Source of the DNA: a virus
Taxonomy: Duplodnaviria; Heunggongvirae; Uroviricota; Caudoviricetes
Length of the DNA stretch: 25,708 bases
Direction: 5' to 3' (one strand)
IMG/VR virus record: IMGVR_UViG_3300048598_000131
This document shows, piece after piece, positions 5,601 to 23,439 of the stretch (position 1 is the stretch's first letter; each line of letters starts with the position of its first letter). Both the position numbers and the translations under genes were made by a program. The notes under the pieces were generated by a model, which was given only the letters and a program-made list of their open reading frames with translations, made no database searches and was not told the DNA's origin.

Positions 5601-8192
5601 AATCAAAATTTAGGCTACGTTCAACGCTATAATAGCTTGGCTAGCTATACCGGTGATACTAGATATTATGAGGCTGGAATAAATGGAGGATATGCACCGC
5701 CATCATCATATAAATTAGGTCATTTATCCTATCAGATGCAGGCATCTGGATCATTATCCTATAGCACTGTAGGCTCGTATATTCCTGGGCCAATAAGTGT
5801 TAATGACACGACAGGTAATATAGTGGCTAGTACTAATGATCCGAGTACGGTTGGAATAGACTGTATAAATGTATTTCAGCGCTATGTGTGGGCAAATAAT
5901 ACAGATGATAATAAGGCTTATCGCCTCGAATTGGATGCCGATAGTTCAAGTGTATGGCTGAATGCGTCATTAGCCGGAAATGATGCAGGGGCTAATTCAA
6001 CTAAATTTAGCATTAGCGCCCTAAAGTCAGCAAGTGCAATTGTTACTCAGAGCTATTTAGCCTACATGTATCTTACGAGTAGAGTCTTGGCGAAGGTTGA
6101 CTCTACTAACATACATAGTAGTTGGGTAGATTCAGGTGTTATACTGCCTGTGAGCAATAGTGTGGACTATTTAGACATGCCTTCGATTATTAACAGCGGA
6201 GGTTATTTGATTGAGCCTACGCTAGGCAAGAATGGAATTTTGGAGTTTACAAATGTTACTCCGTTGCCAAAAGGACGTTATATACTAACGCTAGTAACAG
6301 GCAATGTTGGAAAAGTAGACGCTGACTTTTTAGGGTTTAAGGTGAATTTGTCTATAGGCGGTTATACCTATTCTAAGACACTTTTAGCCAATAAATCAGG
6401 ATATAATTTTTCAGGCACAGACGTTTTTGATATCGATCTTGCTTACGATGTAGGTTCAAACTGGCTATTCGGTATAGAGCTTACCAATGCACTTAGAGAT
6501 ATAGCCAGAAACACACAGAGACAGCTAAGGGTGTATTCTTACGAATTAAGACATGTAAGCGTTGATCCGTACAAAGTGCAGTTTGGTTTAGACTCTAACG
6601 GTAATCCCGCTACACCTGTTATTACACTACTTAGTAAAACAGATGCACTGAATACTCCTGGTGGCTGGATTGCTGAGATTAAGTCCGATGGCAGCACAGC
6701 TACTACTGTGCATGAGTCTGCCATAGTATCGTCAAGTGATACTATGACAAATAGCTTGCCTATTTCATGCTTGTTGACGGGGCAGACTGGTGAAAAAAGA
6801 GAAGATATACTATGTAGTGATATAAAAGACATTACGGGTACAAGTGAAGATATTAAAGCATATACTATACCTGTGCCAGCCTCTGTAGCAGCTCCTGTGC
6901 TAGATAGTGTGACTGCAACGTCTTCTACTTATAGCGAAGGTGATACAGCAAGCTTTACTGCAAATGCTAACTCAGGCAGTGGACCTATTTATAGCTATGT
7001 ATGGACATTTTGGGATGGTTCGACTACGGCAACAGCTGTAAATAGCGTGAGTAAACAGGTTAATATTTGCGGGGATCCGTCTAATTCAAATACATTAACT
7101 GTGTCTTGTGACGCTGTAGGGCCGACAGGACTAGTATCAACCAGCAGCAAGACGTTTAGCGTAAAAGGACTTCCTAGGCTTTTAAATACTATAACTATAT
7201 CTAATAACTATACGTATTTTCCGTTTACCACAGTAATAGCCGTAAAGGCTTATACGCTTAGCGGTAATAGCCTTACTTTTTCTTGGCCGTCCGGTGTAAC
7301 TGCAACAACTACAACAGAGTCCTACTCAGCTAAGTGGAGACCTACGGACACAGCTAGCGTAAGTTGTTTGCTCTATACGTCTACAACTTCAGCTATCAGT
7401 GTAACAGCTGATACCGTGCTAACGTGTAGTATAGCGGATGCTGTAAACGGAACATCGGTGAGCATTGATGTTAATCTGGTTGGTTATGCTGTTAGTGCTG
7501 TGCACGTAAGTTCATCCGTAGGGTCAACAGATATCATTACCGATGCATCAGCACTGCCCATTCAGCGAGTTGGCGCCGATCAAGTTGTAACGTTTACCGC
7601 TTATGCTAATAATGCGACGTCTACGCCAGTTTTTGATTGGGAATTCTATGGATCCAATAACTGGTCGGTGGAGGGAAATACTAATGCGCAGATAGTGACT
7701 AATTTGGGAAATGGAACATATCAGAGCAAAATAATAAAGAGCATAGCGCAAGAGATCATACCACAGGGCCAAACTCAGAAAACAGTGGTGGCCGTTTGCA
7801 CCGTTAACGTGTCCGGCACGTCTTATACGTTGCAAATTCCTGTGATTTTGGAATCAGATCAAGCACCAGGTAATTTTACTATCAGTAGGCTAATAGATGG
7901 CGACAATACGAATTCGGTGGCTATGGCGGATAAAAAATCAATAGTCTATGAAATTGCAGGCATAGATCCAGATGGGGACGTGACTACGGCTATGTGGTCT
8001 GTTAACCAAGATGCACCTCTACCACTTACGGGCATTTATTGGGGTCCAAAGCTGACTTTAAATTCTGGCGATTATGCTATAGGCGACGTCATACAGGGGA
8101 GCGTGACTTTGATCGATAGGCTTGGTGGTTCTAATATACAAGATATTCCAGTTACGTATATTACAGATGTTACGTCTGCGAGCGGACAGTAA
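2628..8192 (+). CDS. Large virion protein: baseplate wedge-like N-terminus (P2 gpI / T4 gp7 / TssG-like), LamG (ConA-like) domain, C-terminal PKD/Ig-like domains
   Basis: N-terminal motif LxxLAxxVG...R...RLKIKGTxxSFxxLxxLVG. LamG-like pattern (CWMPFNE...ATISFWTK...TWYFIFAT...LHDLRLWN) at about 4890-5440. PKD-like SFTA..GPIYSYVWTFWDGS at about 6950-7030, with further beta-sandwich-like S/T/V-rich segments downstream. Confidence 0.7.
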   Translation: MSLANLASNFLYERLPRAVLSQDERGLIAAVVGGFQDHLSDLRAYAGHMCDFYTPDNLTTGGTNCVIVKASNGQGGVFTQSLTIDSTTPSADSSNLLVWAAKTLNLPVESIVSVSYGLDLLRNVDANLLACLAATVGAVLHQNAALTEETTAYTRMVNTWFPRLKIKGTAASFESLGKLVGFDDVIVSPLWSRLSPRDPSDVGSAVNDSDYASVPQCYPAQSISEHYDPFNYRDGPYYAWQAIVNNKVTSSNYYTQVVTGANPWIKAVVVGGSNGTVTHPFSGASPTTTYTGSAVLAGGGDKVKAWVIPQGSDIKFEAIAEGESFNGLELNFSTTGSLCTISAYDRLSDIKYRSSYFDLKMTMDMDKVEEVFGSRSATANADLKANPVTPDGTASSPYTAYSGGSYSAAYNSRDWLGSIESVSVVQPRVQANPVGVRQLNTADLLTAGNQALQSMEEVRPATRFVRKSGVGFLLKEDVEYAAFSTPVLLFAGVVSQTSYQGQLASVVPYATATARIISGAVEHAFTSELSPVDSNVGVYNGIDITSNGTFNFSDGTYVWTLPAADADKMTVELLWHPSTSEVIRDEPSFVQKSAGTIDYQTRPEDDFSDYTLDTVDDYAWRDDLAVGGDLVDLDVYSPTVTDNSLVSLVTDTVFQDQNGVDVSVYGKYTVAKPCLSLVDYRETGKAYAPGQMAIGYMGSFRDLSTYTDSQHLLPNATDYSVVFDGDYALYHVGVCYGQMVADLAKFAGPANSHGLTCWMPFNEHPESGISVLDSYGQIVLSTNGIATSDRIWDSNFGWVLKSHTFSISHTAYKNIIDRATISFWTKFDQTVDSACIQCGQLKIVITSGNVVVYVLNSAGTYVQIISFTPSLSTWYFIFATTDSLTATAGYGTISGIVSSSSVSSNFADVSDLDQTLSISGTNTYIYLHDLRLWNDVKTLSSLDVIRDYKPSPTICPYPLGRVESIDSRDVYGLKVLPCGWAYLTDLPPVIRNQNLGYVQRYNSLASYTGDTRYYEAGINGGYAPPSSYKLGHLSYQMQASGSLSYSTVGSYIPGPISVNDTTGNIVASTNDPSTVGIDCINVFQRYVWANNTDDNKAYRLELDADSSSVWLNASLAGNDAGANSTKFSISALKSASAIVTQSYLAYMYLTSRVLAKVDSTNIHSSWVDSGVILPVSNSVDYLDMPSIINSGGYLIEPTLGKNGILEFTNVTPLPKGRYILTLVTGNVGKVDADFLGFKVNLSIGGYTYSKTLLANKSGYNFSGTDVFDIDLAYDVGSNWLFGIELTNALRDIARNTQRQLRVYSYELRHVSVDPYKVQFGLDSNGNPATPVITLLSKTDALNTPGGWIAEIKSDGSTATTVHESAIVSSSDTMTNSLPISCLLTGQTGEKREDILCSDIKDITGTSEDIKAYTIPVPASVAAPVLDSVTATSSTYSEGDTASFTANANSGSGPIYSYVWTFWDGSTTATAVNSVSKQVNICGDPSNSNTLTVSCDAVGPTGLVSTSSKTFSVKGLPRLLNTITISNNYTYFPFTTVIAVKAYTLSGNSLTFSWPSGVTATTTTESYSAKWRPTDTASVSCLLYTSTTSAISVTADTVLTCSIADAVNGTSVSIDVNLVGYAVSAVHVSSSVGSTDIITDASALPIQRVGADQVVTFTAYANNATSTPVFDWEFYGSNNWSVEGNTNAQIVTNLGNGTYQSKIIKSIAQEIIPQGQTQKTVVAVCTVNVSGTSYTLQIPVILESDQAPGNFTISRLIDGDNTNSVAMADKKSIVYEIAGIDPDGDVTTAMWSVNQDAPLPLTGIYWGPKLTLNSGDYAIGDVIQGSVTLIDRLGGSNIQDIPVTYITDVTSASGQ

Positions 8193-11158: not shown

Positions 11159-11467
11159 TCAAATCTGCATTGGTAATATTCGGGCGTGCTTTTTGATGCG
11201 AGATTCGAGTAGCGCGATGAAACTTTCAAGTGTGTCAGTTGCTTTCAATTTGTGCATTAGATCGAGGTACAGTTTAAATTTGTGTTGGTCTAGCTCGTAA
11301 ATATATACAGTATTACTTGAATAGAATGTAAGTGTAGTAGTATCATCTAGCGAGAATTCTTCTATACTAAATTGTAAAAGGTTCAGTGTATACCTTTGGT
11401 AAGGTGTATACCTTTTGTAAGCTTCGTCTAGGTACAAGATCGCAGAATAGTAGGCGTTTACGCACAT
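11159..11467 (-). CDS. Hypothetical protein, terminal gene of the minus-strand block (possibly a very degenerate array member)
   Basis: 102-aa ORF overlapping the upstream gene by 10 nt; lacks the NK-LL start; has a C-terminal amphipathic helix pair. Confidence 0.6.
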   Translation of the reverse strand: MCVNAYYSAILYLDEAYKRYTPYQRYTLNLLQFSIEEFSLDDTTTLTFYSSNTVYIYELDQHKFKLYLDLMHKLKATDTLESFIALLESRIKKHARILPMQI

Positions 11468-11886
11468 TTTGGTACTAAGTTATTTATCATTAATCTTTTG
11501 AGAGTTGCAACATTTTTACGCTTATTTTTGCTCAGATGCTGTAACCAGCCTATCACATACTTTATGGCTAAATCTCCACGTTTAAAATCGAATTCGTAAT
11601 GCATTAGGTGCTCATGCGTATCGTCTGACGAATTGGAGCCTATTACGTGGTTTGTTCTATAAAAGGCGTACGCGCTGTAAACCATTTTAGCTAGTGTGCA
11701 TTTTCGTTCAACTGAATGCATAGAGCCAGATATAAGAGGTTCTACGATGCCTATGCGTAAAGCGTTAGAACTAAGGACGTATATGACTAAGTCAAAATCA
11801 TCAGGTAGCCTAGCTATTTTTGAATAGCTTCTACTGCTAATGCCGCCGAAGTAGGTAAGCAGCCGTATTTTTCGTTTTAGTTTCAT
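11458..11886 (-). CDS. Hypothetical protein, possible degenerate array member
   Basis: 142 aa, basic N-terminus KRKIRLL, ATGA overlap with the upstream gene. Confidence 0.7.
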   Translation of the reverse strand: MKLKRKIRLLTYFGGISSRSYSKIARLPDDFDLVIYVLSSNALRIGIVEPLISGSMHSVERKCTLAKMVYSAYAFYRTNHVIGSNSSDDTHEHLMHYEFDFKRGDLAIKYVIGWLQHLSKNKRKNVATLKRLMINNLVPKCA

Positions 11887-12383
11887 GTCCGATAGACGCT
11901 TTTAACTTTTGCCACTATTTCTGAGAACGCTGTATTAGGTTGAATAGACTTGTTTACAGCGATTAGTTTAGAAATTGTATTACGTAGTTGTTTCAGGCTG
12001 TGCGAAGTCATTGTGCATTGTACGATTGCGCCGTCGCTTGTTGCATCCCAGTGCGCGTAATAGAATTTAGTTTCAGCGTGAACTATATTTGCATAAGGAT
12101 TATTCGCTAGTACAGTCCCAGAAAGAAGACGCGTATAGGTAGGCATGCGAACTTTAGTTAAATCTATAATATCAGTATCTATACGTAAGTCTGAATCAGT
12201 GTGTTTTTTACGCTGGTTTAGCGGCCATATACACGAAATAGATTCTGTAAACGAATTCACACGAGTAGCGATTACTGCCTGTTTAGACACAGCATAAAAC
12301 ACGAGACGTTCAATGTACAGGCCATGAGGTTTAAACTCGGTGTGACCGTGCAGTATTAGCTTTTCTTTTGTTTTTAGATTCAT
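11883..12383 (-). CDS. Hypothetical protein, possible degenerate array member
   Basis: 166 aa, N-terminus MNLKTKEKLIL. Confidence 0.7.
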   Translation of the reverse strand: MNLKTKEKLILHGHTEFKPHGLYIERLVFYAVSKQAVIATRVNSFTESISCIWPLNQRKKHTDSDLRIDTDIIDLTKVRMPTYTRLLSGTVLANNPYANIVHAETKFYYAHWDATSDGAIVQCTMTSHSLKQLRNTISKLIAVNKSIQPNTAFSEIVAKVKSVYRT

Positions 12384-12810
12384 GTGCGAGTAAAATTTTG
12401 GTTAGATTTCGCATAGCGTCGGCGCCGCTCGTGTTATAACCAGTAGAATAAAACCACTGACCAATTAGCATTTTAATTCTGTCGAGTGCTCTGTTACTTC
12501 CAGCTGTACCTAAGCTACAAGTGTCAAGGTGAAAGTGGGTAGTTAAATGCGAGAATTCCATCGTAAAATCGGTTGAAATGTAAGGACATCGATCTTTAAT
12601 CTTATATGCCTTCTTTACTGACTTAATAGCCGTGCTCGGACCATACACGTCTAGACTTAAGTCTATTGGACTAACGTGAATGTAGACACGAACGCTACAG
12701 ATTGGGTCTTCTAGAGAATAGCACATTTTAGCGTAGTCTCCTCTAACGTCGTCTGCGCCGTGGCTTACTGTAGTGTCTAGCAGTAATTTGTTTTTGTTTA
12801 ATGTATTCAC
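12331..12810 (-). CDS. Array paralogue (divergent)
   Basis: GTG start; NKNKLLL near the N-terminus; WFYSTGY followed by a terminal helix. Confidence 0.75.
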   Translation of the reverse strand: MNTLNKNKLLLDTTVSHGADDVRGDYAKMCYSLEDPICSVRVYIHVSPIDLSLDVYGPSTAIKSVKKAYKIKDRCPYISTDFTMEFSHLTTHFHLDTCSLGTAGSNRALDRIKMLIGQWFYSTGYNTSGADAMRNLTKILLAHESKNKRKANTARSHRV

Positions 12811-12826
12811 TGCGTAATTTGTACGA

Positions 12827-13237
12827 TTAGAGCGCTGCCATATTAGCTAAAAATGATTCTATGGCAGAATGTATTGTAGTTGTATAGTTTAAGCTAAGCA
12901 TCCATTTCGATAGGTAGATAGAGAATTCTCGCGTAATCACTGCACTATTAAAAAATACTTTAGCTTCTACTAAGGATAGTGTAGCTGAATCGTAGAACAG
13001 GCTTACGTTTGCTTTGTCGTAGGACATGTACCGGTCTCCGTAGAATTGGTTTTGTAACGGACGTCTGAGTCTGAATTCTAAGCTTATATTACTTTCGTGA
13101 TAGAGTACATGAAAGTGCTTTGTAAACATAAAAATACTAAGTTTATGAGTAGTATCAGTAAGGTTTATGCAGTCGTCTAAGTCACTAACAGGACCAGCTA
13201 TTAAGCGATTTAGAATCTTATTTTTGGTTATAGGCAT
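12827..13237 (-). CDS. Array paralogue (divergent)
   Basis: KNKILN near the start; KWMLSLNY motif. Confidence 0.8.
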   Translation of the reverse strand: MPITKNKILNRLIAGPVSDLDDCINLTDTTHKLSIFMFTKHFHVLYHESNISLEFRLRRPLQNQFYGDRYMSYDKANVSLFYDSATLSLVEAKVFFNSAVITREFSIYLSKWMLSLNYTTTIHSAIESFLANMAAL

Positions 13238-13761
13238 ACTAGCCGATGTGTAGTTGTCCTCATCACGTGCTTAAATGAATCCATGATAGCTAAAGTGGGC
13301 AGGCCGTATTTAACCTTAAGCATCCAGTTGAACACACTTGATTCTATTTTAAGTTTATACGCTATTTTGCATTCTAGCGAATTACCGTAAAATGCGATAC
13401 AGAACGTGTGCGCAGGTTCAACGATGACTGATGTCTCATATATCGTGTGCCTTTTACTGTAGCTGATTATAGCATAGTTTTCGCTTGAATTAGCTTCGTG
13501 TATGCTCCATGCATTTTCAGAATATAAACTAAGTGACTTGCTGTATAAGGCTTCATCGTTAGCGTTAGATAGTTTTTTAGTGTGGTCTATTATGCTTACT
13601 ACGGCTACGCCTGCATTGGAGTATTCGAATAGGCTAATGCGAGCGTGTTTAGTATAAACGTGCACTCCGTAAGGATTGCTTTCTAAGTTCAGCACATGGC
13701 AGCTGAATGGCAGGCTAGGATAGGCTACACATTTGTTTAAAATTATCTGCTTGTTTGTCAT
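13228..13761 (-). CDS. Array paralogue (divergent, longer)
   Basis: ATG at 13761 preferred over TTG at 13767; MTNKQIILN; NWMLKVKYG. Confidence 0.8.
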   Translation of the reverse strand: MTNKQIILNKCVAYPSLPFSCHVLNLESNPYGVHVYTKHARISLFEYSNAGVAVVSIIDHTKKLSNANDEALYSKSLSLYSENAWSIHEANSSENYAIISYSKRHTIYETSVIVEPAHTFCIAFYGNSLECKIAYKLKIESSVFNWMLKVKYGLPTLAIMDSFKHVMRTTTHRLVCL

Positions 13762-13767
13762 AGCCAA

Positions 13768-14229
13768 TTATGTGCTTTTAATACCGAGTAGCGTAGGCAT
13801 TACGTCATCAATGGCTATATTATACTTTAGACTGAGCAACCTTGTCCTAAGTCTTATGTTTAAATCTGTTTTATTCTGTAGTCTTAGGTGTCTTAAGCCG
13901 TTAGCTTTGAACGCCACATGCATTTGTCTATATTGCGTGTAATGCATGTATCCAATAGGTGTATAGATAACTGGATATTGGTCAGGTTTTTTACAGTGGT
14001 CTATGCTGATCTCTAGGTCAAAATTGCTCATAGCTAGTGTAAGACCTATATTCGGCAGTATAGAACTTCGGTTAACCATGATATGAAGGTGCGTTTCAGT
14101 GCCTGAATAAGTAGGATCTAGAACAAGGCGAACATGCTTTAATATCACATCTGTTACACAGGTATTTTGCGCGTTAACCGGCGTACCGTATGTTTCTTGC
14201 GTAGTCAATAATCTGTGCTTGTTGTGCAT
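13768..14229 (-). CDS. Array paralogue (divergent)
   Basis: MHNKHRLL; RLLSLKYN. Confidence 0.8.
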   Translation of the reverse strand: MHNKHRLLTTQETYGTPVNAQNTCVTDVILKHVRLVLDPTYSGTETHLHIMVNRSSILPNIGLTLAMSNFDLEISIDHCKKPDQYPVIYTPIGYMHYTQYRQMHVAFKANGLRHLRLQNKTDLNIRLRTRLLSLKYNIAIDDVMPTLLGIKST

Positions 14230-14232
14230 AAG

Positions 14233-14625
14233 CTATGCGGTTTTCATACAGTTAGCAAAGTTAGCTATAATTTGTTCTAAATCTTCAGCGTACAATAGGC
14301 TATTTGTCCATTTTATCAGTTTTAAGTTTAAATTTAACATTTCGGTAGAACGACAATTAAACAAGGTACAGCTTTTAGTGCTGTAAATGAGCTGAATATC
14401 ATAAGGACTATCTAGGGGCTCTCCACTTTTTAAAATGGATTTTTTCTTTGGCTTATCATTGTAGATGGTTAGCGTTGAAAGACCGCCCCACGTGTTGAAT
14501 TTTATGCTAATTTCAGCAACTTTTGTACGTACATCTATTTCTGCGAGATCGCGCTTAGGCTTGCAACAGCGGTAATAAGCGTAATTAAAGGCACTGAAGC
14601 GCTGCAATAGCTTTTGTTTGTTCAT
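14233..14625 (-). CDS. Array paralogue
   Basis: MNKQKLL; KWTNSLLY. Confidence 0.85.
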   Translation of the reverse strand: MNKQKLLQRFSAFNYAYYRCCKPKRDLAEIDVRTKVAEISIKFNTWGGLSTLTIYNDKPKKKSILKSGEPLDSPYDIQLIYSTKSCTLFNCRSTEMLNLNLKLIKWTNSLLYAEDLEQIIANFANCMKTA

Positions 14626-14628
14626 TGG

Positions 14629-15063
14629 CTAAAGGCTATTTAGAAGGTTAAGTAGACAAGGCGTAAATTCGCTAGGTTTGACACTGAATTTTAGACCTGC
14701 TATCCATAGGCCTATTTTTCTGTCTATTATTGAAGAGAAAGGAGCTGCATGTTTAAATTTTATGCCGATGCTAACGTCTTGCTTTGACTCCGGTCTGTTA
14801 ACCGTCGAGAGCGTGCATATGGCATTTGGAGTTTCTATAGGGTCTGTGACCGGAATTACTTCATCAATAGAATAGTTTAGCGCACATAAATAAATTCGTT
14901 TCAAACCATCTATAGAATAATATCTAGTGTATAAAATAGATAGATGCTTTAGCTTGATTACAGTAGCATGCCGATTACCTAGGTTAATTAGATATCGATT
15001 TGAGCTATCCATGTGCTGCTCTGAGTTATGCCTAAATTTCTGTAAAATAAATGCTTTGTTCAT
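14629..15063 (-). CDS. Array paralogue
   Basis: MNKAFIL; LWIAGLKF. Confidence 0.85.
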   Translation of the reverse strand: MNKAFILQKFRHNSEQHMDSSNRYLINLGNRHATVIKLKHLSILYTRYYSIDGLKRIYLCALNYSIDEVIPVTDPIETPNAICTLSTVNRPESKQDVSIGIKFKHAAPFSSIIDRKIGLWIAGLKFSVKPSEFTPCLLNLLNSL

Positions 15064-15066
15064 GGC

Positions 15067-15525
15067 CTAGATTTCGGATAGCATACGTACAAGACTTGAT
15101 AGCGTAGTCCTGGAACTTTCAGCGTAAGGCCGGGAAAGCATCCACGCTATTATTTTGCTGTGAGTTACAGCCGTAGCAGTAGGTATGCTGAGAGGCGTTT
15201 TAATACTTAAGGTTATACCGTGTTTTGTATAGCATCCTTTGTCTTCACTACAGACCTTTTTGCTTTTATATCCGTTTAGCTCTATGTGCGCGTATTCGCT
15301 CGCAGATATGAGCGCATATGTCTTATTTTCTAGGCATGGCACCGTAAGTTTTATACTGGATTCAATGTAAATAGTAGCATGATTATATTTGTGCCAGTTG
15401 CACATATTATTGAATATAATTAGTGTATTTTTAGTTTTTACACGTAAATTATCACAGATTGTTATGCCATAGTCAGAATAGATGTGTACCATTTGAAATG
15501 CTTTTACTATCTTTGCTTTGTTCAT
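15067..15525 (-). CDS. Array paralogue
   Basis: MNKAKIV; AWMLSRPY. Confidence 0.85.
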   Translation of the reverse strand: MNKAKIVKAFQMVHIYSDYGITICDNLRVKTKNTLIIFNNMCNWHKYNHATIYIESSIKLTVPCLENKTYALISASEYAHIELNGYKSKKVCSEDKGCYTKHGITLSIKTPLSIPTATAVTHSKIIAWMLSRPYAESSRTTLSSLVRMLSEI

Positions 15526-15528
15526 GAT

Positions 15529-15942
15529 CTAGATTGTGGCTATAGTGTTAATTAGGCCAGATAGCGCGGTCTTTTGATCTATTCTGTAGTTGAGCACTCG
15601 CACGTACTTTTCTATTTGAGTGCGCGTATAGTTTAATCCTATATTACGGAATATATAAATTTTAATTTCTAAACTATTACAATTATTTTTGGAGCAGCTA
15701 GATCTAGTGCCCACATGCTTAATAATTTTAGAATCAAATCGATTAGACTTGATGTGCGTATCTAAATCTTTTATGTAGTCGTAATTACTATCGCTAAAGT
15801 GAGTTGTGACGAATACAGTGATAGCTTGCAAGTTGTTTTCAGAATATATTGTAGTCTGAAAGCGTTTAAGATACAGATTTAAAGAAGTGCTGGTTATATT
15901 ATCTCTGTATATGATAGACTGTAATAGTCGTTCTTTGTTCAT
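15529..15942 (-). CDS. Array paralogue
   Basis: MNKERLL; KYVRVLNY. Confidence 0.85.
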   Translation of the reverse strand: MNKERLLQSIIYRDNITSTSLNLYLKRFQTTIYSENNLQAITVFVTTHFSDSNYDYIKDLDTHIKSNRFDSKIIKHVGTRSSCSKNNCNSLEIKIYIFRNIGLNYTRTQIEKYVRVLNYRIDQKTALSGLINTIATI

Positions 15943-16364
15943 GCTTTGCTAATAGTTTGCTTTAGCTTTTTAACAGTGTCTTGTAACTTAAAACTGTAAG
16001 GCAGCAGAAGCATAAAATGTTTTATTTTTAAGTATATAGCTTTGGAAGTGTGGCCGGATATATTACACATGTTTGCGCTTATTACAGCAGAATATCTATT
16101 ACGGTTGTCGTGGCCAATGGTAAAGGCGTGCATGGTATACAAGTGGCATTTCCATTTAGCACTAGATCCTGTAATAGACTCAGGCAAATAAATCGGTGAT
16201 TGCGCTATAATACTGATATTCATTTGATCTCGATTGAACGAAAAATAGTTGTAGTACCTAAGAGTAATTAGACATTGCTTTAGTCGCACGTTTACGGCAT
16301 ACTCTTCTCTACATCGCTCATTTTCTGTAATGCTGTAAGTCTGTAGTAGCTTGTCTTTGTTCAT
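15939..16364 (-). CDS. Array paralogue
   Basis: MNKDKLL; HFMLLLPY. Confidence 0.85.
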   Translation of the reverse strand: MNKDKLLQTYSITENERCREEYAVNVRLKQCLITLRYYNYFSFNRDQMNISIIAQSPIYLPESITGSSAKWKCHLYTMHAFTIGHDNRNRYSAVISANMCNISGHTSKAIYLKIKHFMLLLPYSFKLQDTVKKLKQTISKA

Positions 16365-16807
16365 ATACTAGACAGTAGTTGTACTAAGCCCGCGCAAATG
16401 TCTTTTAAGCTTACCGTGTAGTGAACTGATAATATGTGCGCGCATACACACTGGCATAACTTCAGCTTGGAGGTCTCAACGCGTAATCTGAGCGTAAGCT
16501 CCATGTAGTGATCTATATAATATCGATCAATAGATCCAAATCCTATTCGTGATCGAGCAGTTTGGGTGTAAACACTGCGATAGACGCTAAGGTGATTTCC
16601 TCTGATATAGTCAGGCAGTTTTGGTCGAGTATTAGAAATGATGTAAATGATTCCACACCAAGTTCTAGCACAGATGTTTGTATCGCTAAATATAAGCTGG
16701 GCGTGCTTTAGCTTTGAATGAATAGCTGTTGGTAGGCGTGGACTGAATTCAGAGTAATTGAGTATATTGCCACGATTAAACTCATTTAGTAAAATCTGCT
16801 TGTTCAT
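16361..16807 (-). CDS. Array paralogue
   Basis: MNKQILL; AHILSVHY. Confidence 0.85.
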   Translation of the reverse strand: MNKQILLNEFNRGNILNYSEFSPRLPTAIHSKLKHAQLIFSDTNICARTWCGIIYIISNTRPKLPDYIRGNHLSVYRSVYTQTARSRIGFGSIDRYYIDHYMELTLRLRVETSKLKLCQCVCAHILSVHYTVSLKDICAGLVQLLSSI

Positions 16808-16810
16808 ATG

Positions 16811-17224
16811 CTAGTACGTTTCAATAAAGTGTTTTATGCAGGTTATTGCATCTTTTGGCTTGGAGCCGTAAGGGAGAGTTAGTAGCATATGAGCTATTTT
16901 CAAGAAAGTTGTATTTGCGTATGAAGCTGACATATGTAGGGTATTTACATAGAATGTGCCGTGATAGGGCCTATTGCGGTTAACTGGGCCTGTGGTATGT
17001 GCATAAGAGCTACAGTCACACTTAAGGTTTTTTCCTTTTATGCGATCAGGTAGACTAAAAGTCGTGTTTGATGCGATATTTATGGCTAGCTGTACCTCAA
17101 GGTCACTACGATAATAGACAAAGGTACTTATTTTTAGGTTTTTAAGTTGTACACACAAATTATGGCTGTGCTCAGCAGAAAACATCGTATGATCAAGTGT
17201 GTTTAATACGCGCTGTTTGTTCAT
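16811..17224 (-). CDS. Array paralogue
   Basis: MNKQRVL; HMLLTLPY. Confidence 0.85.
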   Translation of the reverse strand: MNKQRVLNTLDHTMFSAEHSHNLCVQLKNLKISTFVYYRSDLEVQLAINIASNTTFSLPDRIKGKNLKCDCSSYAHTTGPVNRNRPYHGTFYVNTLHMSASYANTTFLKIAHMLLTLPYGSKPKDAITCIKHFIETY

Positions 17225-17227
17225 GTT

Positions 17228-17662
17228 TTAGGTAGTGATAGCTTGTATCAATCTAGTTTCTACTTCTTGCTGTTTTGCATCATAGTTTAAGGACAGCATG
17301 AAGTATTTTATTCGAAGGTAAGTGGCACGTATGCTATCAGCGGGTATTCTTGTCTCATATAGAATAAAACTAGTTACGTACGCCTCTGGTAAGCTAAATC
17401 CGCTTAGAACAGTAAAAAGTTCAGAGCAATTACATGTCCAATTAGAATTTTCTAAGTACCGGTGTTCAGCTATTTTAAAAGGATTGCACGAGTCTACTCT
17501 AAGGTTAATAGAGCTGTGTCGGGTGTCCGTATAGTAATTATTCAGCATAAAGATAGTCATACTCTTTAGCCGTACTTCTACAGAGCTACTATTGATATCC
17601 TCTATATTAGCATACGTTGTTTTGTCTATAAAATTCTGCTGTAATACACGCTGCTTGTTCAT
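17228..17662 (-). CDS. Array paralogue
   Basis: MNKQRVL; YFMLSLNY. Confidence 0.85.
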   Translation of the reverse strand: MNKQRVLQQNFIDKTTYANIEDINSSSVEVRLKSMTIFMLNNYYTDTRHSSINLRVDSCNPFKIAEHRYLENSNWTCNCSELFTVLSGFSLPEAYVTSFILYETRIPADSIRATYLRIKYFMLSLNYDAKQQEVETRLIQAITT

Positions 17663-17665
17663 ATA

Positions 17666-18109
17666 CTATACTGATTCGATGAATTGTATTACACGTGTTA
17701 TTGTTTGTTGCAGTCCTAGGCCATAGGATATGGATAGCGCTAAAAGTCTTAGTTTAGCGTGTAAGCATAGAGTTTTAGCCGCGTCCTGACCAGGCGTTTT
17801 AAGACTAAGTTGAGAAGAATAAAGTATGGGGATTTTTGTATTGGGCGGAGGTTGAACTTGGGCATAGTTGGTACATTCGCATGTAAGACTTTTTGCCTTT
17901 ATGTCTGTAGGTATTCTAAACTCTTGGTGTGATAGAAACTCAATATGTATAATAGCTTTATTGCCCGATGCAAACGTGTAGGGCTTCGAGCATACATAGC
18001 GAATAACGATACATACGGACTTTATTCTGACGATTAGTGTATCATTAACTGCTGTGTTGTTCGCAATAGGAGTCTCTTGGTAGTGTTGCAGCAGTCGTTG
18101 TTTGTTCAT
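17666..18109 (-). CDS. Array paralogue
   Basis: MNKQRLL; RLLALSISY. Confidence 0.85.
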   Translation of the reverse strand: MNKQRLLQHYQETPIANNTAVNDTLIVRIKSVCIVIRYVCSKPYTFASGNKAIIHIEFLSHQEFRIPTDIKAKSLTCECTNYAQVQPPPNTKIPILYSSQLSLKTPGQDAAKTLCLHAKLRLLALSISYGLGLQQTITRVIQFIESV

Positions 18110-18112
18110 AGG

Positions 18113-18532
18113 CTAAGCTGTAGCAACAAAAGAAAGTATTTCATCTCTTAGACGCTGTAATTCTAGGCCATAGGGCATAGATAGTATCAGAAGGCGCAGT
18201 TTAACGTATATCGATAAGGTTTCAGTGTCTGTTGACTCTGGTGCGCTAATTGTAAGTGTAGAGCAATACTCTACAGTGCTTAAATCACAATCAGGCGCAC
18301 AAGCTAAATCATAGTTTTTATAGGAATATTGAATGTGCTTGGTGTAGCTGCCTGTAGGAATATTAAGCGGCTTACGCGCAAACACGTCCAAGACTATAAA
18401 TGCTGCCCACATGGAAGCTGATACGTAGCAAACAGTGGCATGCGCGTGCTTAAAGTAAACCTCTAGTGTATAACCTTCTGTCAGCGTGTTTGTACGACCG
18501 TCAATTCGTTGTAATAGTCGCTGTTTGTTCAT
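18113..18532 (-). CDS. Array paralogue
   Basis: MNKQRLL; LLILSMPY. Confidence 0.85.
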   Translation of the reverse strand: MNKQRLLQRIDGRTNTLTEGYTLEVYFKHAHATVCYVSASMWAAFIVLDVFARKPLNIPTGSYTKHIQYSYKNYDLACAPDCDLSTVEYCSTLTISAPESTDTETLSIYVKLRLLILSMPYGLELQRLRDEILSFVATA

Positions 18533-18945
18533 GCTTTGTATACGATATTCAGTAAACTATCTACGATCAGCTGTGGACTGATACCGTAGCGTAGGGATAA
18601 CAGGTACGTCAGCAGCTTAATGTGTGTGATGCGCACTTTATTAGCGTTTTCATTTTCTAGTATTAGCCTGCACATTGGATATGACCGGCTATATCCAGAA
18701 TAGAAAGTAGAATAGAGTCTAAAGTTTCCTATCGTATTATTTTTAATCTGTTTGATTGGTTCAAATGCTATAGGGTTAGAGACTGTTATGAAGAATTGAA
18801 GCTGCCAAATTGCAGGCTGTTGATATCTAAGTAGTTTGTGGACATAATACTCTATACTACAATCTTTTAGGCCTAAATCAGCTTTTAGACCGTTTGCCTT
18901 AATATTGTAGAGGCTAATAGGAACTAGTAATCGTGGCTTGTTCAT
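18529..18945 (-). CDS. Array paralogue
   Basis: MNKPRLL; GNFRLY; YLLSLRY. Confidence 0.85.
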   Translation of the reverse strand: MNKPRLLVPISLYNIKANGLKADLGLKDCSIEYYVHKLLRYQQPAIWQLQFFITVSNPIAFEPIKQIKNNTIGNFRLYSTFYSGYSRSYPMCRLILENENANKVRITHIKLLTYLLSLRYGISPQLIVDSLLNIVYKA

Positions 18946-19355
18946 GTTTTGGATATGATATTAAGAATACATTGCATGATTCTACGTGGATTACTAAGAT
19001 AGTCTAAAGCCAGGAGATAGGGCAGGACTTGGGTGTAAGCTTTAAAAGTATTATCTCGGCTTGCGTGGTCAATGCGTATGCCATAGGTCGTACTCCAGCC
19101 TGAGTTATCGAGTTGAGAAGCACTTTCAGCGTAGTATGCTATAAACTTGCCAAGCCTAATACGTGAAGTCTGTTCAATCGGCATATACTTATTGCTTATA
19201 GTACGGATAGCTAGAATAAGCTGACTTGTGGTTAAACTATCATAATAGCTAAATTTGACGTACGCGCCTTTTATTGCAAATGCGGCACTCATTGCAGTTG
19301 TGCTAGCTATTGCACTTTCAAACTTATTACGAATGAGTAAACGCTGTTTGTTCAT
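18942..19355 (-). CDS. Array paralogue
   Basis: MNKQRLL; LGKF; YLLALDY. Confidence 0.85.
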   Translation of the reverse strand: MNKQRLLIRNKFESAIASTTAMSAAFAIKGAYVKFSYYDSLTTSQLILAIRTISNKYMPIEQTSRIRLGKFIAYYAESASQLDNSGWSTTYGIRIDHASRDNTFKAYTQVLPYLLALDYLSNPRRIMQCILNIISKT

Positions 19356-19762
19356 ACCTTAGAGATGATTTGAATTATATTGGGCATGATCAATCGTTGA
19401 TTCGTGATGTAGCTTAGTGATAGCAGATATTGAACAAGATTTACCTCAATGCTATCAGTTTTAATGGATCTCGCTACTTCCAGTCCTAGGATACAGGAGG
19501 CGTAGCCGTTTTTAGCTATGTCACAGCGCTTGCTGTATACCTTAAAGTTGCCCATAGAATTGTTGGCTATGGCTTGTAGCGCATCAAAGGCATGCGGATT
19601 AGAGAATAGGGCGTACAGCTCGAATCGATTGAACAGCTCGAATCGATTCGAGCTGTAAGGTATATTGGCATAAAATGTGATATGCGCGTTTTTAAGAACT
19701 GTTCTGATCGATATGCCTGGCAGTCTAAGCACAGGACGAGCTAGTAATCGTTGCTTGTTCAT
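19352..19762 (-). CDS. Array paralogue with internal NRFEL duplication
   Basis: MNKQRLL; GNFKVY; YLLSLSY. Confidence 0.85.
   Translation of the reverse strand: MNKQRLLARPVLRLPGISIRTVLKNAHITFYANIPYSSNRFELFNRFELYALFSNPHAFDALQAIANNSMGNFKVYSKRCDIAKNGYASCILGLEVARSIKTDSIEVNLVQYLLSLSYITNQRLIMPNIIQIISKV
19615..19656. repeat. 16-bp direct repeat overlapping a perfect 24-bp palindrome inside a CDS
   Basis: ACAGCTCGAATCGATT at 19615-19630 and 19633-19648; ACAGCTCGAATCGATTCGAGCTGT at 19633-19656 is self-complementary. Confidence 0.9.
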
Positions 19763-20190
19763 ACCTTAAAGATAATCTTGAGCAAATTTGTTACGATTGT
19801 GCACGGAGGACTACCGTAGTTTAGGGATAGTAAGTATTTCAATATATGAGAGCATGCGATTGAACTTTTATTGTTGTATGAGTTTTCAAAAATTAGTTGA
19901 CATGCCGTAATTTTACACATGCATATAGTATGTATAGTGTCTTTATAGAAATTTATGAGCGCACGAAAGCCTCCTAGCCTACTTGATTGTTGAAGCATTT
20001 TAAGCGCTTTAAACATATTAGGATCAATGGGTGTAATGTATAAAATAAACTGATTAGTTGTATTAGGCTTGCAGGCATAAAATTCTATGTAAATTTCTTT
20101 TAGCTCAAATTCAAATTTTAATTGTGAATAGGGTGCATAAGGTGATGTTACACCGAGTAAGCCGCGTAATAGTAAGCGCTGTTTGTTCAT
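19759..20190 (-). CDS. Array paralogue
   Basis: MNKQRLL; LGGF; YLLSLNY. Confidence 0.85.
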   Translation of the reverse strand: MNKQRLLLRGLLGVTSPYAPYSQLKFEFELKEIYIEFYACKPNTTNQFILYITPIDPNMFKALKMLQQSSRLGGFRALINFYKDTIHTICMCKITACQLIFENSYNNKSSIACSHILKYLLSLNYGSPPCTIVTNLLKIIFKV

Positions 20191-20570
20191 GCTTTGGAGA
20201 TGATGACTTTCAGGTCTGGTATGACTAGCTCTGGATTTATGCCATAGCTTAAGGACATAAGGTAGCGATTTATACTTAGACTTACTTTGCGTAATTTAGA
20301 CCTAGACGCACCTTTCAATTCTACTCTGCGCATTAGATAGCCTGCATTGTAGTAGCTGTCAATACGCGTCCAAAAACGGCCTAATTCCATTGATTCTACT
20401 TTATGGTCAAATCCACGGATGCTATGCAATATTACGTCGATTACAAGGGACGGAGTAGCCAATCGTCGGTGAAATACAACAGTCATGTGCTTTAGCTTTA
20501 ACTCGATTGGGTTATCTGAGACTAGCTTAGTATCAAATGGTATGTCTATTAGTAATTTAGTCTTGTTCAT
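20187..20570 (-). CDS. Array paralogue (pair with 20567-20950)
   Basis: MNKTKLLI; LKLKHM; YLMSLSY. Confidence 0.85.
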   Translation of the reverse strand: MNKTKLLIDIPFDTKLVSDNPIELKLKHMTVVFHRRLATPSLVIDVILHSIRGFDHKVESMELGRFWTRIDSYYNAGYLMRRVELKGASRSKLRKVSLSINRYLMSLSYGINPELVIPDLKVIISKA

Positions 20571-20956
20571 AGACGGGAGATGCTGACTCTTAGTCCTAAT
20601 ACAGCTAGAGTTGGACTGATGTTATAGCTTAATGCCATGAGATGACGTTCTATGCTCTGACGGACCTTTTGTAATGCAGCTTTAGACACGTTTTTTATTT
20701 GTATTTCATACACTGGAATACCAAGCTCGTAGTACTGTTTAAATACGCAGTAAAAACTGCTTAACTTCATTGATTTTGATTTAGGTTCAAATACGCCTGC
20801 ACTGTAGGGCACTAAGTAGACTGCGAGGGATGAAATCGTTAAGTCTTTTTTGAATATCACATTCATATGTTTAAGTTTCAATGCGAATGAGGAGTCTTGG
20901 CCGAATTTAAGCTTATATCTCAGGCCTATTAGTAATTTAGTCTTGTTCATAGACGG
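20546..20956. repeat. Perfect 31-bp direct repeat spanning two consecutive gene junctions
   Basis: CTATTAGTAATTTAGTCTTGTTCATAGACGG at 20546-20576 and 20926-20956, period 380 bp. Confidence 0.9.
20567..20950 (-). CDS. Array paralogue (pair with 20187-20570)
   Basis: MNKTKLLI; LKLKHM; HLMALSY. Confidence 0.85.
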   Translation of the reverse strand: MNKTKLLIGLRYKLKFGQDSSFALKLKHMNVIFKKDLTISSLAVYLVPYSAGVFEPKSKSMKLSSFYCVFKQYYELGIPVYEIQIKNVSKAALQKVRQSIERHLMALSYNISPTLAVLGLRVSISRL

Positions 20957-21338
20957 CTAAGATGGTTTTTATCGTCGGTACAATCGTCTTTGGATCATCC
21001 CTATACCTTAGAGATAGTAAATAATACTCAAGCTTTTTACGCACGTTGTACAGCATATCCTCGTTCGGGCATTCTATGTCCAGCCATCTAACGTTGGCGT
21101 TGCTAAGGACGTGTAAGGAACGAATGTGAAGTAGAAATTTGCCTAAGTTCACCATTGATTTTACTTCATCGTCAGCTCCAAAGGCCTTGTGATATCCTAT
21201 GTTGATACAAATAGGCGTATTTGGTCTATATCTGCGTAAATAAACATAAACACGAGCAAGCGTGATGTTTAAGGCCACACGAATGTTATTAGGCACGAAG
21301 TCATAGGACGCGTTCACTAGTAGTTCAGATTTGTTCAT
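20937..21338 (-). CDS. Array paralogue (recent duplicate of 21335-21754)
   Basis: MNKSELL; PNTPICINI..FGAD.EVKS.VNLGKFLLHI; YLLSLRY. Confidence 0.85.
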   Translation of the reverse strand: MNKSELLVNASYDFVPNNIRVALNITLARVYVYLRRYRPNTPICINIGYHKAFGADDEVKSMVNLGKFLLHIRSLHVLSNANVRWLDIECPNEDMLYNVRKKLEYYLLSLRYRDDPKTIVPTIKTILAVYEQD

Positions 21339-21754
21339 AGGCCAGCCAGGATTACTCTTAAATGAGATATAATCGCTCTCGGATCATTCCTATAGTTTAG
21401 GGTTAGGAGATAGCGTTCAAGCTCTCTATGGACGTCGTACAGCTTATCCTCGTTCGTACATTCTATGCCTAGACGTCTAACGTTGGTGTCACTAAGGATG
21501 AGCAAAGAGTTAATGTGAAGTAGAAATTTACCTAAGTTCACCGTTGATTTTACTTCAGCATCAGCTCCAAATGATTTGTTGTAGATTATGTTGATACAGA
21601 TAGGCGTATTTGGCCAATATCTGCGTAGAAAAACACGGGCATGACGAAGCGTGATGTCTAAAAGTACAACAGTGCGCTCAGGTTCAAGCTCACAGAACGC
21701 ATTAATGCGCGCATACTCATAGCGCACATTTAATAATATCCGAGATTTGTTCAT
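21335..21754 (-). CDS. Array paralogue (recent duplicate of 20937-21338)
   Basis: MNKSRIL; same core motif; YLLTLNY. Confidence 0.85.
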   Translation of the reverse strand: MNKSRILLNVRYEYARINAFCELEPERTVVLLDITLRHARVFLRRYWPNTPICINIIYNKSFGADAEVKSTVNLGKFLLHINSLLILSDTNVRRLGIECTNEDKLYDVHRELERYLLTLNYRNDPRAIISHLRVILAGL

Positions 21755-22152
21755 ACTTTTGAAACAATCTTTAGCATATCCGACATAGCAGTGTGCGGGT
21801 TACTGCGATAGCGCAGGGATAATAGGTAGGCGCGTATTTGAGCACATGCACTAGCTATTTTATCATCGGCTAAACATTCAAAGACTAGCCTACATGAATT
21901 AAAAGCATAGGTGCCTTTAGCGTAGAATAAGGCGTACAGTTTAAAGTTTCCTACCACGCTACCACTAGGTTGTCTAAACGGATCAAACGCTGTAGGATCA
22001 AGTGCGGTGACGAAGAGTAGGAATTGATCAGTACCGATGTCTCTGCGGCTGTAAAGCTCTACGCCAATTGTTTTTAGATTTAAATAGCATTCTAGCTGTG
22101 GATTGCTAGGGTTACGAAATTCAATTGGTATGAGCAATCGAGATTTGTTCAT
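21751..22152 (-). CDS. Array paralogue (pair with 22149-22565)
   Basis: MNKSRLLIPIEFR; PFRQP.GS.VGNF.LY; AYLLSLRY. Confidence 0.85.
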   Translation of the reverse strand: MNKSRLLIPIEFRNPSNPQLECYLNLKTIGVELYSRRDIGTDQFLLFVTALDPTAFDPFRQPSGSVVGNFKLYALFYAKGTYAFNSCRLVFECLADDKIASACAQIRAYLLSLRYRSNPHTAMSDMLKIVSKV

Positions 22153-22565
22153 AGTTTTGAAACAATCCTTAGTATGCCCAACACAATAGCATGTTGGCTA
22201 CTGCAATAGCGCAGAGATAGTAGATAAGCTTCTATTTGAGAACATGTATCAGTTATTTTATCACCACCTAGACTTTCAAAGATTAGCTTGCATGAATCAT
22301 ACACAGGGGAGCGCATATTAGCGAATGAAGCGTACAGCATAAAGTTTCCTACAATGCTACCTCTAGGCTGTCTAAACGGAGTAAACGCTGTATGGTCAAG
22401 TGTTGTAGGGTAACGTGTACTGATGTAGAATATAAGTTGACTAGTGCTACGGCTGTTGAAGTTATCAAGCTCTATTTTAACTGTTTTTAGCTTTAAACAG
22501 AGTTTTAGTTCTGGGTTGTAGGCGGCACGAAATTCAACAGGTATGAGTAATCGAGATTTGTTCAT
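22149..22565 (-). CDS. First array paralogue; true start most likely ATG 22565, not 22619
   Basis: MNKSRLLIPVEFR begins at 22565 and forms an ATGA overlap with the stop of 22562-22951, as in other junctions. Confidence 0.85.
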   Translation of the reverse strand: MNKSRLLIPVEFRAAYNPELKLCLKLKTVKIELDNFNSRSTSQLIFYISTRYPTTLDHTAFTPFRQPRGSIVGNFMLYASFANMRSPVYDSCKLIFESLGGDKITDTCSQIEAYLLSLRYCSSQHAIVLGILRIVSKL

Positions 22566-22951
22566 AGCTGCTCTAGTGCATTCGCTTCCACCCACCGAAT
22601 AAGTGACGCATAATCCCATTCTCCTTGTTGACCAATTATGGGTATGAGCTGTGCTTGTAGATTTAAATCCGTAACCACAAAGTTTCGAATAGCACCAACC
22701 TTTCTATGTAAGAGCTGACCAATGCCTAGGTGAATAATACCTGGTTGCACTACACCATCAATAAAGTCCGTGGATAGCGTAAGGATAAGATAACAGTCCC
22801 TACAGGTATAGCAGAGTGTTACAGTGTCTTGTCTATGAGTAGTGCCGTCCGCATAGACATGGATGTAGACATCGTGTGATTGTAGATCGCGTGTAATAGC
22901 AGGAGCCATGGTATAAATGATTACTTCAAATTGAATAATAATGTTGACCAT
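22562..22951 (-). CDS. Hypothetical protein, first gene of the array operon, not a family member
   Basis: 129 aa, lacks the NK-LL and LLSLxY motifs; contains CYTCRDC; ATGA-coupled to the first paralogue. Confidence 0.7.
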   Translation of the reverse strand: MVNIIIQFEVIIYTMAPAITRDLQSHDVYIHVYADGTTHRQDTVTLCYTCRDCYLILTLSTDFIDGVVQPGIIHLGIGQLLHRKVGAIRNFVVTDLNLQAQLIPIIGQQGEWDYASLIRWVEANALEQL

Positions 22952-22985
22952 AGAGGGCTAAAAGTCAGCTTAAAACCTTGGATTT

Positions 22986-23010
22986 CAATAGCCAGCTATG
23001 CTGGCTATTG
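22986..23010. promoter_or_regulatory. Perfect inverted repeat (hairpin or operator) in the divergent control region
   Basis: CAATAGCCAGC-tat-GCTGGCTATTG, 11-bp arms, no clear U-tract on either side. Confidence 0.6.
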
Positions 23011-23148
23011 GTTTGTACAGAAGTCAAGAAAATACTAGGAGTAGAGTAGAAATTTTTAAAAAACAAGGGTTTAGATAGGGATTTTAGGCTATAAATTTAT
23101 GTAAGTGCTACGTATTAAGCTACTTATAAACGTAATTAAAATTAAATG

Positions 23149-23181
23149 TTGACTTTTAGCCTAAACGCACTAAATTAAGTT
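23149..23181 (+). promoter_or_regulatory. Sigma70-like promoter, predicted leaderless transcript
   Basis: TTGACT (23149-23154), 16 bp, TAAATT (23171-23176), 5 bp, ATG (23182). The upstream 16-mer matches that of the 8207 promoter at 15/16 positions. Confidence 0.55.
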
Positions 23182-23439
23182 ATGAACCTACGCGAATGGC
23201 TTCCACAGGAATTTTTCAATAAGCATAGCTATTCGGAGTTGTACCGACACATGGATGCACACGTTTCTGAGTCTTACGTTTTACCCGCTCTTAATGGTCC
23301 TGTAGAGAAAAAGCATCCATTTAAGCACAAGCACATTTTTAGTTGGTGCATTTTGGACGATGGCTTAGCCGTAGGTGTTAATGAGAGGCCAGGTAGCAGT
23401 AGGGGAATGAGTTTTCCGTATAAGCGAATGAAGTCTTAA
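23182..23439 (+). CDS. Hypothetical protein
   Basis: 85-aa ORF with protein-like composition behind a predicted promoter. Confidence 0.75.
   Translation: MNLREWLPQEFFNKHSYSELYRHMDAHVSESYVLPALNGPVEKKHPFKHKHIFSWCILDDGLAVGVNERPGSSRGMSFPYKRMKS

Follow-up and report, generated by a model that had tools for sequence, protein, structure and literature searches.

A silent C held at twenty consecutive gene starts of an uncultivated phage, and its possible role in an ACA/ACAA translation-start element

Short ACA elements close to the start codon have been described in Salmonella yifK and dppA, where ACA behaves as a translation-enhancing module: replacement of any of its bases lowered expression by 23-62%, randomisation of four ACAs in dppA lowered it more than 100-fold, and shifts in position were tolerated (Yang, Figueroa-Bossi & Bossi 2014, PMC3879156). 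As cited in that same paper, ACAA repeats drive initiation without a Shine–Dalgarno (SD) sequence (Tzareva 1994), and CA repeats enhance translation downstream of AUG (Martin-Farmer & Janssen 1999). Expression benefits from a second codon rich in A (Tats et al. 2006, PMC1397820), and in E. coli data covering 1.2 million variants codon 2 contributed most among the codons of the coding sequence, accessibility at +6 was a top predictor of expression, U was the most favourable single base at -1, via pairing with A37 of the initiator tRNA, and synonymous effects at codon 2 were attributed to folding, not to tRNA supply (Hollerer & Jeschek 2023, PMC10018350). Between cistrons, termination–reinitiation coupling requires that the genes overlap or leave a very short gap (Huber et al. 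2019, PMC6728339; reporter work of Huber et al. 2023, PMC10666635). Here, we analyzed a 25,708-nt stretch of DNA from a virus of the Caudoviricetes (IMG/VR record IMGVR_UViG_3300048598_000131), hereafter the window, which forms part of a 99-kb contig and in which 20 consecutive paralogous genes begin with the same eight bases, ATGAACAA, including the silent C at +6 (numbered from the first base of the start codon).

According to the map of open reading frames (ORFs), about 28 tightly packed genes occupy the minus strand from 22951 down to 11159. Within this operon lie 24 paralogues of 127-177 aa each (12331-22565), comprising 20 proximal members (14233-22565, 127-152 aa) and four distal ones (12331-14229), which have in common MNKxRLL at the N-terminus and, close to the C-terminus, an LLSLxY motif, at a mean column identity of 21%. 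Met1 and Lys3 are the only residues invariant throughout the alignment, and Asn2 is near-invariant across all 24 paralogues. The motif ATGAACAA was observed 22 times in the window against 1.19 expected, a count reached in 0 of 100 shuffles, and 20 of the 22 matches, all on the minus strand, coincide exactly with the starts of the 20 consecutive proximal paralogues, from 14625 to 22565, the first copy beginning at 22565 and not at the upstream ATG at 22619. On the mRNA strand of the array the motif is confined to starts, since all 20 of its minus-strand matches there are starts. Both the motif count and the start list therefore confirm what a first-pass annotation of this DNA had claimed, namely that the 8-mer stands at 20 of 20 starts with its synonymous position included. 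This figure depends on the bounds chosen, as the exact 8-mer is missing from four of the 24 family members, namely the distal ones (12331-14229), and the observation was chosen post hoc from about ten columns of comparable conservation. The array, the operon and the 20 ATGAACAA starts, with the junction to the upstream gene, are as follows.

14233..22565, minus strand: array core, 20 paralogous genes each with a ATGAACAA start (ORF list, translations, alignment, motif matches)
11159..22951, minus strand: whole operon, about 28 genes, no SD-like 4-mers before the array starts (ORF map, start-context scan)
22558..22565, minus strand: start of copy 1, ATGA overlap with the upstream TGA
22145..22152, minus strand: start of copy 2, ATGA overlap
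21747..21754, minus strand: start of copy 3, ATGA overlap
21331..21338, minus strand: start of copy 4, ATGA overlap
20943..20950, minus strand: start of copy 5, 14-nt overlap, upstream stop TAA
20563..20570, minus strand: start of copy 6, ATGA overlap
20183..20190, minus strand: start of copy 7, ATGA overlap
19755..19762, minus strand: start of copy 8, ATGA overlap
19348..19355, minus strand: start of copy 9, ATGA overlap
18938..18945, minus strand: start of copy 10, ATGA overlap
18525..18532, minus strand: start of copy 11, ATGA overlap
18102..18109, minus strand: start of copy 12, TAG-NNN-ATG
17655..17662, minus strand: start of copy 13, TAG-NNN-ATG
17217..17224, minus strand: start of copy 14, TAA-NNN-ATG
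16800..16807, minus strand: start of copy 15, TAG-NNN-ATG
16357..16364, minus strand: start of copy 16, ATGA overlap
15935..15942, minus strand: start of copy 17, ATGA overlap
15518..15525, minus strand: start of copy 18, TAG-NNN-ATG
15056..15063, minus strand: start of copy 19, TAG-NNN-ATG
14618..14625, minus strand: start of copy 20, TAG-NNN-ATG

The base tally over the 20 starts delimits the conserved block. Positions +1 to +8 were invariant, with ACA at +5 to +7 (ACAA at +5 to +8) in all 20 copies, and +9 was A in 14 and G in six, so that the Lys3 codon is indeed free to alternate between AAA (14) and AAG (6), as had been noted. From +10 onward and at -3 to -1 the bases were variable save for the second codon positions of conserved Leu residues, and variation was free at +12, +15, +18, +21 and -3 to -1. 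In codons 4 and beyond of the same 20 genes Asn was encoded by 71 AAC and 91 AAT (AAC 0.44), before a codon starting with A by 20 AAC and 43 AAT (0.32), and in internal Asn-Lys pairs by one AAC and six AAT. The reported ATGAAT starts at 8242, 8957, 24254 and 12383 were all recovered, the GTG start at 12810 reads GTGAAT, and ATGAAC outside the array starts was found at 23182 and 23868 only. The count of AAC against AAT at codon 2 that had been proposed genome-wide was made over the window, where the non-array genes have two AAC and five AAT; a general preference for AAC at codon 2 is not visible in this limited sample.

Other second codons in the window have features of their own. Three unrelated-looking plus-strand genes starting MNIK (8242, 8957 and 23868) begin with ATGAATATTAAA in two cases and ATGAACATCAAA in one, and of the non-array genes, about 18 in number, 9 have AAN at codon 2, which hints at a preference for A-rich second codons throughout the phage.

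The silent sites of the paralogues are close to saturation, in agreement with the earlier expectation that they should be scrambled in such divergent proteins. In pairs below 25% identity, the codon was shared at 0.55 of the identical-residue C/T sites (baseline 0.51), and a Tyr conserved in 19 of the 20 copies was encoded by 10 TAT and 9 TAC. Mapped onto a FastTree phylogeny of the 20 copies, the third base of Asn2 needs 0 changes, against a minimum of 5 at Lys3, 4 at Lys44 and 6 at the conserved Tyr. Under a neutral two-state model on this tree, the probability that all 20 copies carry AAC was 2e-6 at the maximum-likelihood rate of five conserved control columns and 6e-6 when averaged, rising to 2e-4 at the lower confidence bound of that rate (range 8e-8 to 2e-4), and it was 8e-5 with the rate taken from all identical-residue sites. 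Chance is thus unlikely for the AAC of Asn2, even allowing for about ten comparable columns, and a tree-aware neutral probability of about 2e-6 (2e-4 at its most conservative) indicates that the C at +6 is under selection. Neither codon usage nor inheritance nor chance explains this silent base, and the 8-mer is constrained at the nucleotide level, as the first-pass annotation had held.

The tree-aware values bear directly on the explanation that the motif has no function, an ancestral AAC having remained unmutated by chance in 20 lineages and been noticed post hoc, which we consider very unlikely. The site is a single one singled out after the fact, with some ten comparable columns at hand and many windows scanned; the two youngest paralogue pairs still share 77-78% DNA identity, and two more columns show zero third-base changes, a Phe (TTT 10/10) and an Ile (ATA 11/11). 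Neither column proved a comparable signal, however, as 70% TTT usage within one clade accounts for the first and alternation with Leu and Val codons, a single step apart, for the second. The control columns required four to six changes where Asn2 required none, and the homologous motif of the distal copies, divergent as these are, contains another four AAC codons, which likewise speaks against an accident of inheritance.

The free variation around the 8-mer also bears on explanations at the DNA level, that is, a recombination core, microhomology for in-register duplication, deletion or shuffling, or homogenisation by gene conversion. The junction is the sole DNA repeat common across the array (62-80% over 40 nt), and such arrays must expand by unequal exchange. 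Nevertheless, homogenisation by repeated recombination, which the first-pass annotation had offered as an alternative, is contradicted by the silent sites at +9 to +21 and the bases at -3 to -1, which vary freely: with silent sites scrambled 3 nt away there is no conversion tract, and gene conversion was rejected because tract-wide identity is missing (+9 A14/G6, flanks variable) and any such tract could not exceed 8 nt. The recombination core listed in the same place found no positive evidence, since eight bases are too short for homologous recombination, 0 of 21 inverted-repeat pairs were junction-associated or recurrent, no attC-like structure was seen, and no recombinase was found among the scanned neighbours. 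Integron attC-like cassettes were rejected on the same ground, none of the 21 pairs lying at a junction. Selection for evolvability would moreover be weak for each copy, and altogether we regard a DNA-level element as highly improbable.

The layout of the junctions points instead toward translation. Twelve of the 20 starts overlap the upstream gene as ATGA (-4), one overlaps it by 14 nt, and seven follow it as in-frame stop-NNN-ATG (+3), so that the array junctions have the co-directional overlaps or very short gaps on which termination–reinitiation coupling relies. None of the 20 starts is preceded by GGAG, GAGG or AGGA, three carrying AAGG only, and the other genes of the window likewise lack obvious SD sequences; the base at -1 was U in 12, C in 7 and A in 1. 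The absence of SD sequences would make independent initiation less likely, and the overlaps and short spacers, combined with the distance rule for coupling, make the array look like one long, translationally coupled, SD-less operon. Scans for promoter-like and terminator-like sites revealed no excess of either within the operon, and no opposite-strand ORF in the ORF map consistently crosses the array junctions. The sole sizeable non-coding gap is the divergent intergenic region upstream of the operon, probably its promoter region.

22952..23181, no strand assigned: divergent intergenic region (ORF map, sequence)

Within the junctions (14226-22569), the penultimate codon of the upstream gene at ATGA overlaps is a Lys codon (AAR) at -5 to -3, and at the spacers TAG or TAA occupies -6 to -4, two layouts which together give A at -5 in 16 of 20 starts and a purine at -4 in 20 of 20. 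A frame change of 1 nt appears sufficient to convert either junction type into the other. Eight in-frame stop-NNN-ATG junctions lie at 13762-18112 (minus strand), seven with TAG and one with TAA, and TAG readthrough there, if occurring, would fuse neighbouring paralogues. Separate starts are favoured by the exact ATGAACAA at each junction and by the TAA and TGA stops interspersed among them.

Our favoured reading is that AUGAACAA constitutes a translation-start module at the mRNA level, made of the start codon and an ACA/ACAA enhancer at +5 to +8, and we give it about an even chance of being correct; the translational nature of the constraint, and its action via the ACA motif, would follow by analogy with the enterobacterial experiments. 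Under this reading, ribosomes would restart at every junction of the SD-less operon of about 28 cistrons, whether ATGA or stop-NNN-ATG, and selection for efficient SD-independent (re)initiation would fix A4, A5, C6, A7 and A8, thereby fixing Asn2 and the first two bases of Lys3 as well, while +9 and the positions beyond would drift. After AUG, a C at +6 would yield the reading A-ACA-A, with +9 falling outside the element. A failed junction would starve all downstream cistrons and might expose C-rich, G-poor RNA to premature termination. Because each junction would gate all the cistrons downstream of it, even a small effect per site could be strongly selected. The conservation of Asn2 and Lys3, odd at the extreme N-terminus of what is modelled as a compact alpha/beta fold, would be easily explained by a conserved RNA. 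Among the mechanisms that the first-pass annotation had listed, a re-initiation signal is the best fit, given the lack of SD sequences, the ATGA and stop-NNN-ATG junctions and the known ACA/ACAA enhancers (PMC3879156); how such a signal would act we infer, and the earlier interpretation is partly supported overall.

Set beside the described systems, the array resembles the yifK and dppA enhancers (PMC3879156) in having ACA/ACAA adjoining the start. Every base of those enhancers matters, including the central C, their positioning is flexible, and activity has been reported without an SD sequence and downstream of AUG. The array motif differs in forming codons 2-3, in recurring at 20 coupled cistrons in an uncultivated phage and in being known from sequence, whereas most of the published cases sit upstream of a genuine SD in enterobacteria. 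Its 12 ATGA overlaps and seven three-base spacers fall within the working range of ATGA coupling (PMC6728339, PMC10666635), but those studies stress the overlap distance and a bacterial SD inside the upstream gene, while the array lacks an SD and has its conserved element downstream of AUG. In the start-context studies (PMC10018350), the second codon, accessibility at +6 and a U at -1 matter, and the array has U12/C7 at -1. The start-module reading, which we regard as the most likely one at roughly even confidence, thus stays within the known biology of start-proximal ACA/CA enhancers, second-codon effects and ATGA coupling, and the array is an unusually clean natural example, not a new kind of system or a new principle.

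Three further observations count in favour of the start module. The constraint ends sharply at +8, the most open stretch around the start in the predicted ensembles is +5 to +8, with an unpaired probability of 0.74-0.88 against a mean of 0.52, and distal copies keep a displaced AAC-AAR, one of them having AAT at its true codon 2. The three distal starts concerned are the following.

14218..14229, minus strand: distal paralogue start ATG CAC AAC AAG, with AACAAG kept one codon further from the ATG
13750..13761, minus strand: distal paralogue start ATG ACA AAC AAG, with AACAAG displaced by one codon and ACA as the inserted codon
12787..12810, minus strand: distal paralogue start GTG AAT ACA TTA AAC AAA AAC AAA, with AAT at codon 2 and AAC AAA twice further inward

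These three paralogues, which are related copies (n=3), retain AAC-AAR 1-4 codons from the start and have two to three ACA in their first 24 nt, the inserted codons CAC and ACA creating more ACA.

Several points weigh against the start module. Among 1.84 billion representatives the family was found in this contig alone, which leaves no relatives for comparison, and the data on ACA enhancers are enterobacterial and concern mostly sites upstream of an SD. The contrast between intact motifs upstream and decayed ones in the distal copies is confounded with copy age. Lys3 is never replaced by Asn (AAY), from which it follows that some protein-level or +9 purine constraint also exists. ACA within -12 to +15 of the 17 non-family genes showed only a trend to enrichment (13 against 8.3 +/- 2.9, P=0.08), which reached P=0.004 with the four distal family members added, these members not being independent. 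Finally, the predicted structural cost of changing the C at +6 to U (C6U) is small (+0.31 kcal/mol) and below that of a third-base swap at the freely varying +9 (+0.65 kcal/mol).

This last point touches on a purely structural explanation, according to which C pairs least in a G-poor mRNA (G 17%, A 33%), so that AAC would keep the first codons single-stranded, whereas AAU could pair with the conserved Leu codons at +16 to +21. In silico, C6U reduced the probability of +6 being unpaired from 0.87 to 0.68, with a drop of about 0.08-0.10 at +16 to +18. The energy for opening -10 to +13 rose in 14 copies and fell in three, the +0.31 kcal/mol being the mean (Wilcoxon P=0.006). The effect is nonetheless tiny, being exceeded at the Lys3 third base that varies freely, and the start windows are only modestly more open than internal ones (opening energy 5.3 against 6.7 +/- 2.6). 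Simple accessibility therefore seems a poor candidate, with a low probability in our judgement; folding explains the synonymous effects in the start-context data (PMC10018350), but the small folding cost of C6U in the array means that the effect must be sequence-specific.

Selection could also act on the codon. The codon AAC is the sole Watson–Crick match to tRNA-Asn(GUU), and AAU is misread more often than AAC. Were Asn2 and Lys3 kept for a protein reason (an N-terminal tag, processing or stability), AAC could be preferred over AAU for a quicker and more accurate first elongation after unanchored re-initiation. Both are invariant as residues, and Lys, with a single tRNA for its two codons, varies (AAA 14/AAG 6) while Asn is fixed on its perfectly matched codon. 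A Tyr of equal conservation has no such preference for C (TAT 10/TAC 9), however, and the distal copies retain AAC where Asn is codon 3, 5 or 7, one of them having AAT at codon 2. The large-scale data, moreover, tie synonymous effects at codon 2 to folding (PMC10018350). Codon-level selection is thus a weaker rival than the ACA-enhancer reading, and an unlikely one.

The sharp 8-nt invariant block with free flanks, and the absence of the whole 8-mer elsewhere on the mRNA strand of the array, would also suit a dedicated trans-acting factor for which the 8-mer is the operator or target and which controls or processes all of the cistrons jointly. The T4 RegA translational operators overlap the AUGs of phage cistrons, their sites being AU-rich and degenerate. 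A short conserved RNA at the start codon could allow such joint control in the array too, but the array 8-mer is invariant and not degenerate, and neither a RegA-like gene nor binding evidence was found here. Besides a RegA-like translational repressor, the candidates would be a GcvB-like small RNA masking CA-rich enhancers or an endoribonuclease specific for ACA; GcvB-type silencing has been documented for ACA enhancers (PMC3879156), and AACA is mildly depleted inside the array genes (51 against 64.3 +/- 4.9). Against such a factor, internal ACA, AACAA and GAACAA are not avoided in the array genes, their counts being at expectation; the Pfam and PHROGs scans of the window neighbours gave no candidate, Rfam covariance models had 0 matches at the gathering threshold over the whole window, and no complementary RNA element containing TTGTTCAT was evident. 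The displaced motifs of the distal copies contradict a rigid operator that includes the AUG. We therefore hold a trans-acting factor to be improbable, about as much so as codon-level selection, and hardly more can be said for the specific proposal that AUGAACAA is the recognition site of a dedicated phage or host factor that switches, doses or processes the 20 or more hypervariable cistrons together. If true, the latter would make the array a translational 'operator array' over an arsenal of variant proteins.

Hypervariable genes with a short conserved 5' coding segment are also found in T-even phages. The internal-protein genes of these phages have conserved 5' ends, which encode a cleaved capsid-targeting sequence of about 10 residues and whose conservation has been linked to recombination. 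The array shares with them hypervariability and a short conserved N-terminal coding segment, but the fixed part in the array is limited to 8 nt, with scrambled silent sites on its flanks. Other kinds of site were also rejected: an AR9-type AACA promoter, as AACA(N6)TW is unmatched (+14/+15 not T/W), and the creation by a U at +6 of an out-of-frame TAA, a near-cognate AUA or an RNase E-type site, for which no testable prediction agreed with the data.

If the start module is real, the array is a natural replicated experiment in which twenty largely independent copies hold one silent base, and a single nucleotide after AUG would be strongly selectable where SD sequences are absent and re-initiation is needed. 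The apparent conservation of N-terminal residues such as Asn2 and Lys3 could then be a by-product of an RNA signal, and AUG followed by ACAA would provide a concrete element for SD-independent coupling in phages of SD-poor hosts. The motif could also aid the calling of true starts in SD-poor genomes.

The motif reading tells nothing of the role of the 24-member family, which, as far as database searches go, appears to be a complete ORFan. A HMMER profile scan of 1.84 billion representatives returned 22 matches, all encoded by the window, and a profile search of a word-indexed set of 5.8 billion proteins returned only the window's own proteins; megablast of the array against 50,697 phage records gave nothing, and Pfam and PHROGs held no matches for the family. 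A confident AlphaFold (AF2) model built on the 24 paralogues had a pLDDT of 89.6 and an alpha/beta fold, for which Foldseek searches of PDB and BFVD returned no match at E<=0.001, and the best Z of a wide VIA-align search, 5.5, fell in the range of noise. The hypervariability of the family suggests an arms-race role.

Elsewhere, the window encodes a thymidylate kinase, a 2'-5' RNA-ligase/Acb1-like protein and large ORFan proteins, in agreement with its phage nature, and no tRNA genes were found in it. The gene at 1933-2619 (plus strand) encodes a 228-aa protein of the 2'-5' RNA ligase/LigT superfamily (PF13563, E=6e-13) with a sub-threshold match to the anti-CBASS protein Acb1 (PF23474, E=3e-4), possibly a cyclic-nucleotide phosphodiesterase for counter-defence. 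On the same strand, 2628-8192 encodes a 1854-aa protein with a weak PKD-domain hint only, and 2-1936 a protein of at least 644 aa; neither had a tblastn match in the 50,697 phage records or a Pfam or PHROG family. By these comparisons, the phage seems far from anything catalogued.

The mRNA of the minus-strand operon contains 33% A, 21.5% C and 16.9% G. GC skew is positive on the plus strand over the whole window (1-25708), the 12-kb minus-strand operon included, which gives the minus-strand genes C-rich, G-poor mRNAs and a synonymous usage of their own, AAC standing at 0.44 in minus-strand against 0.24 in plus-strand genes and AAG at 0.33 against 0.51. Within the array gene at 19352-19762, an inverted repeat of 26 nt (19605-19666; 85% complementary, 10-nt loop) is the strongest hairpin-forming element of the array.

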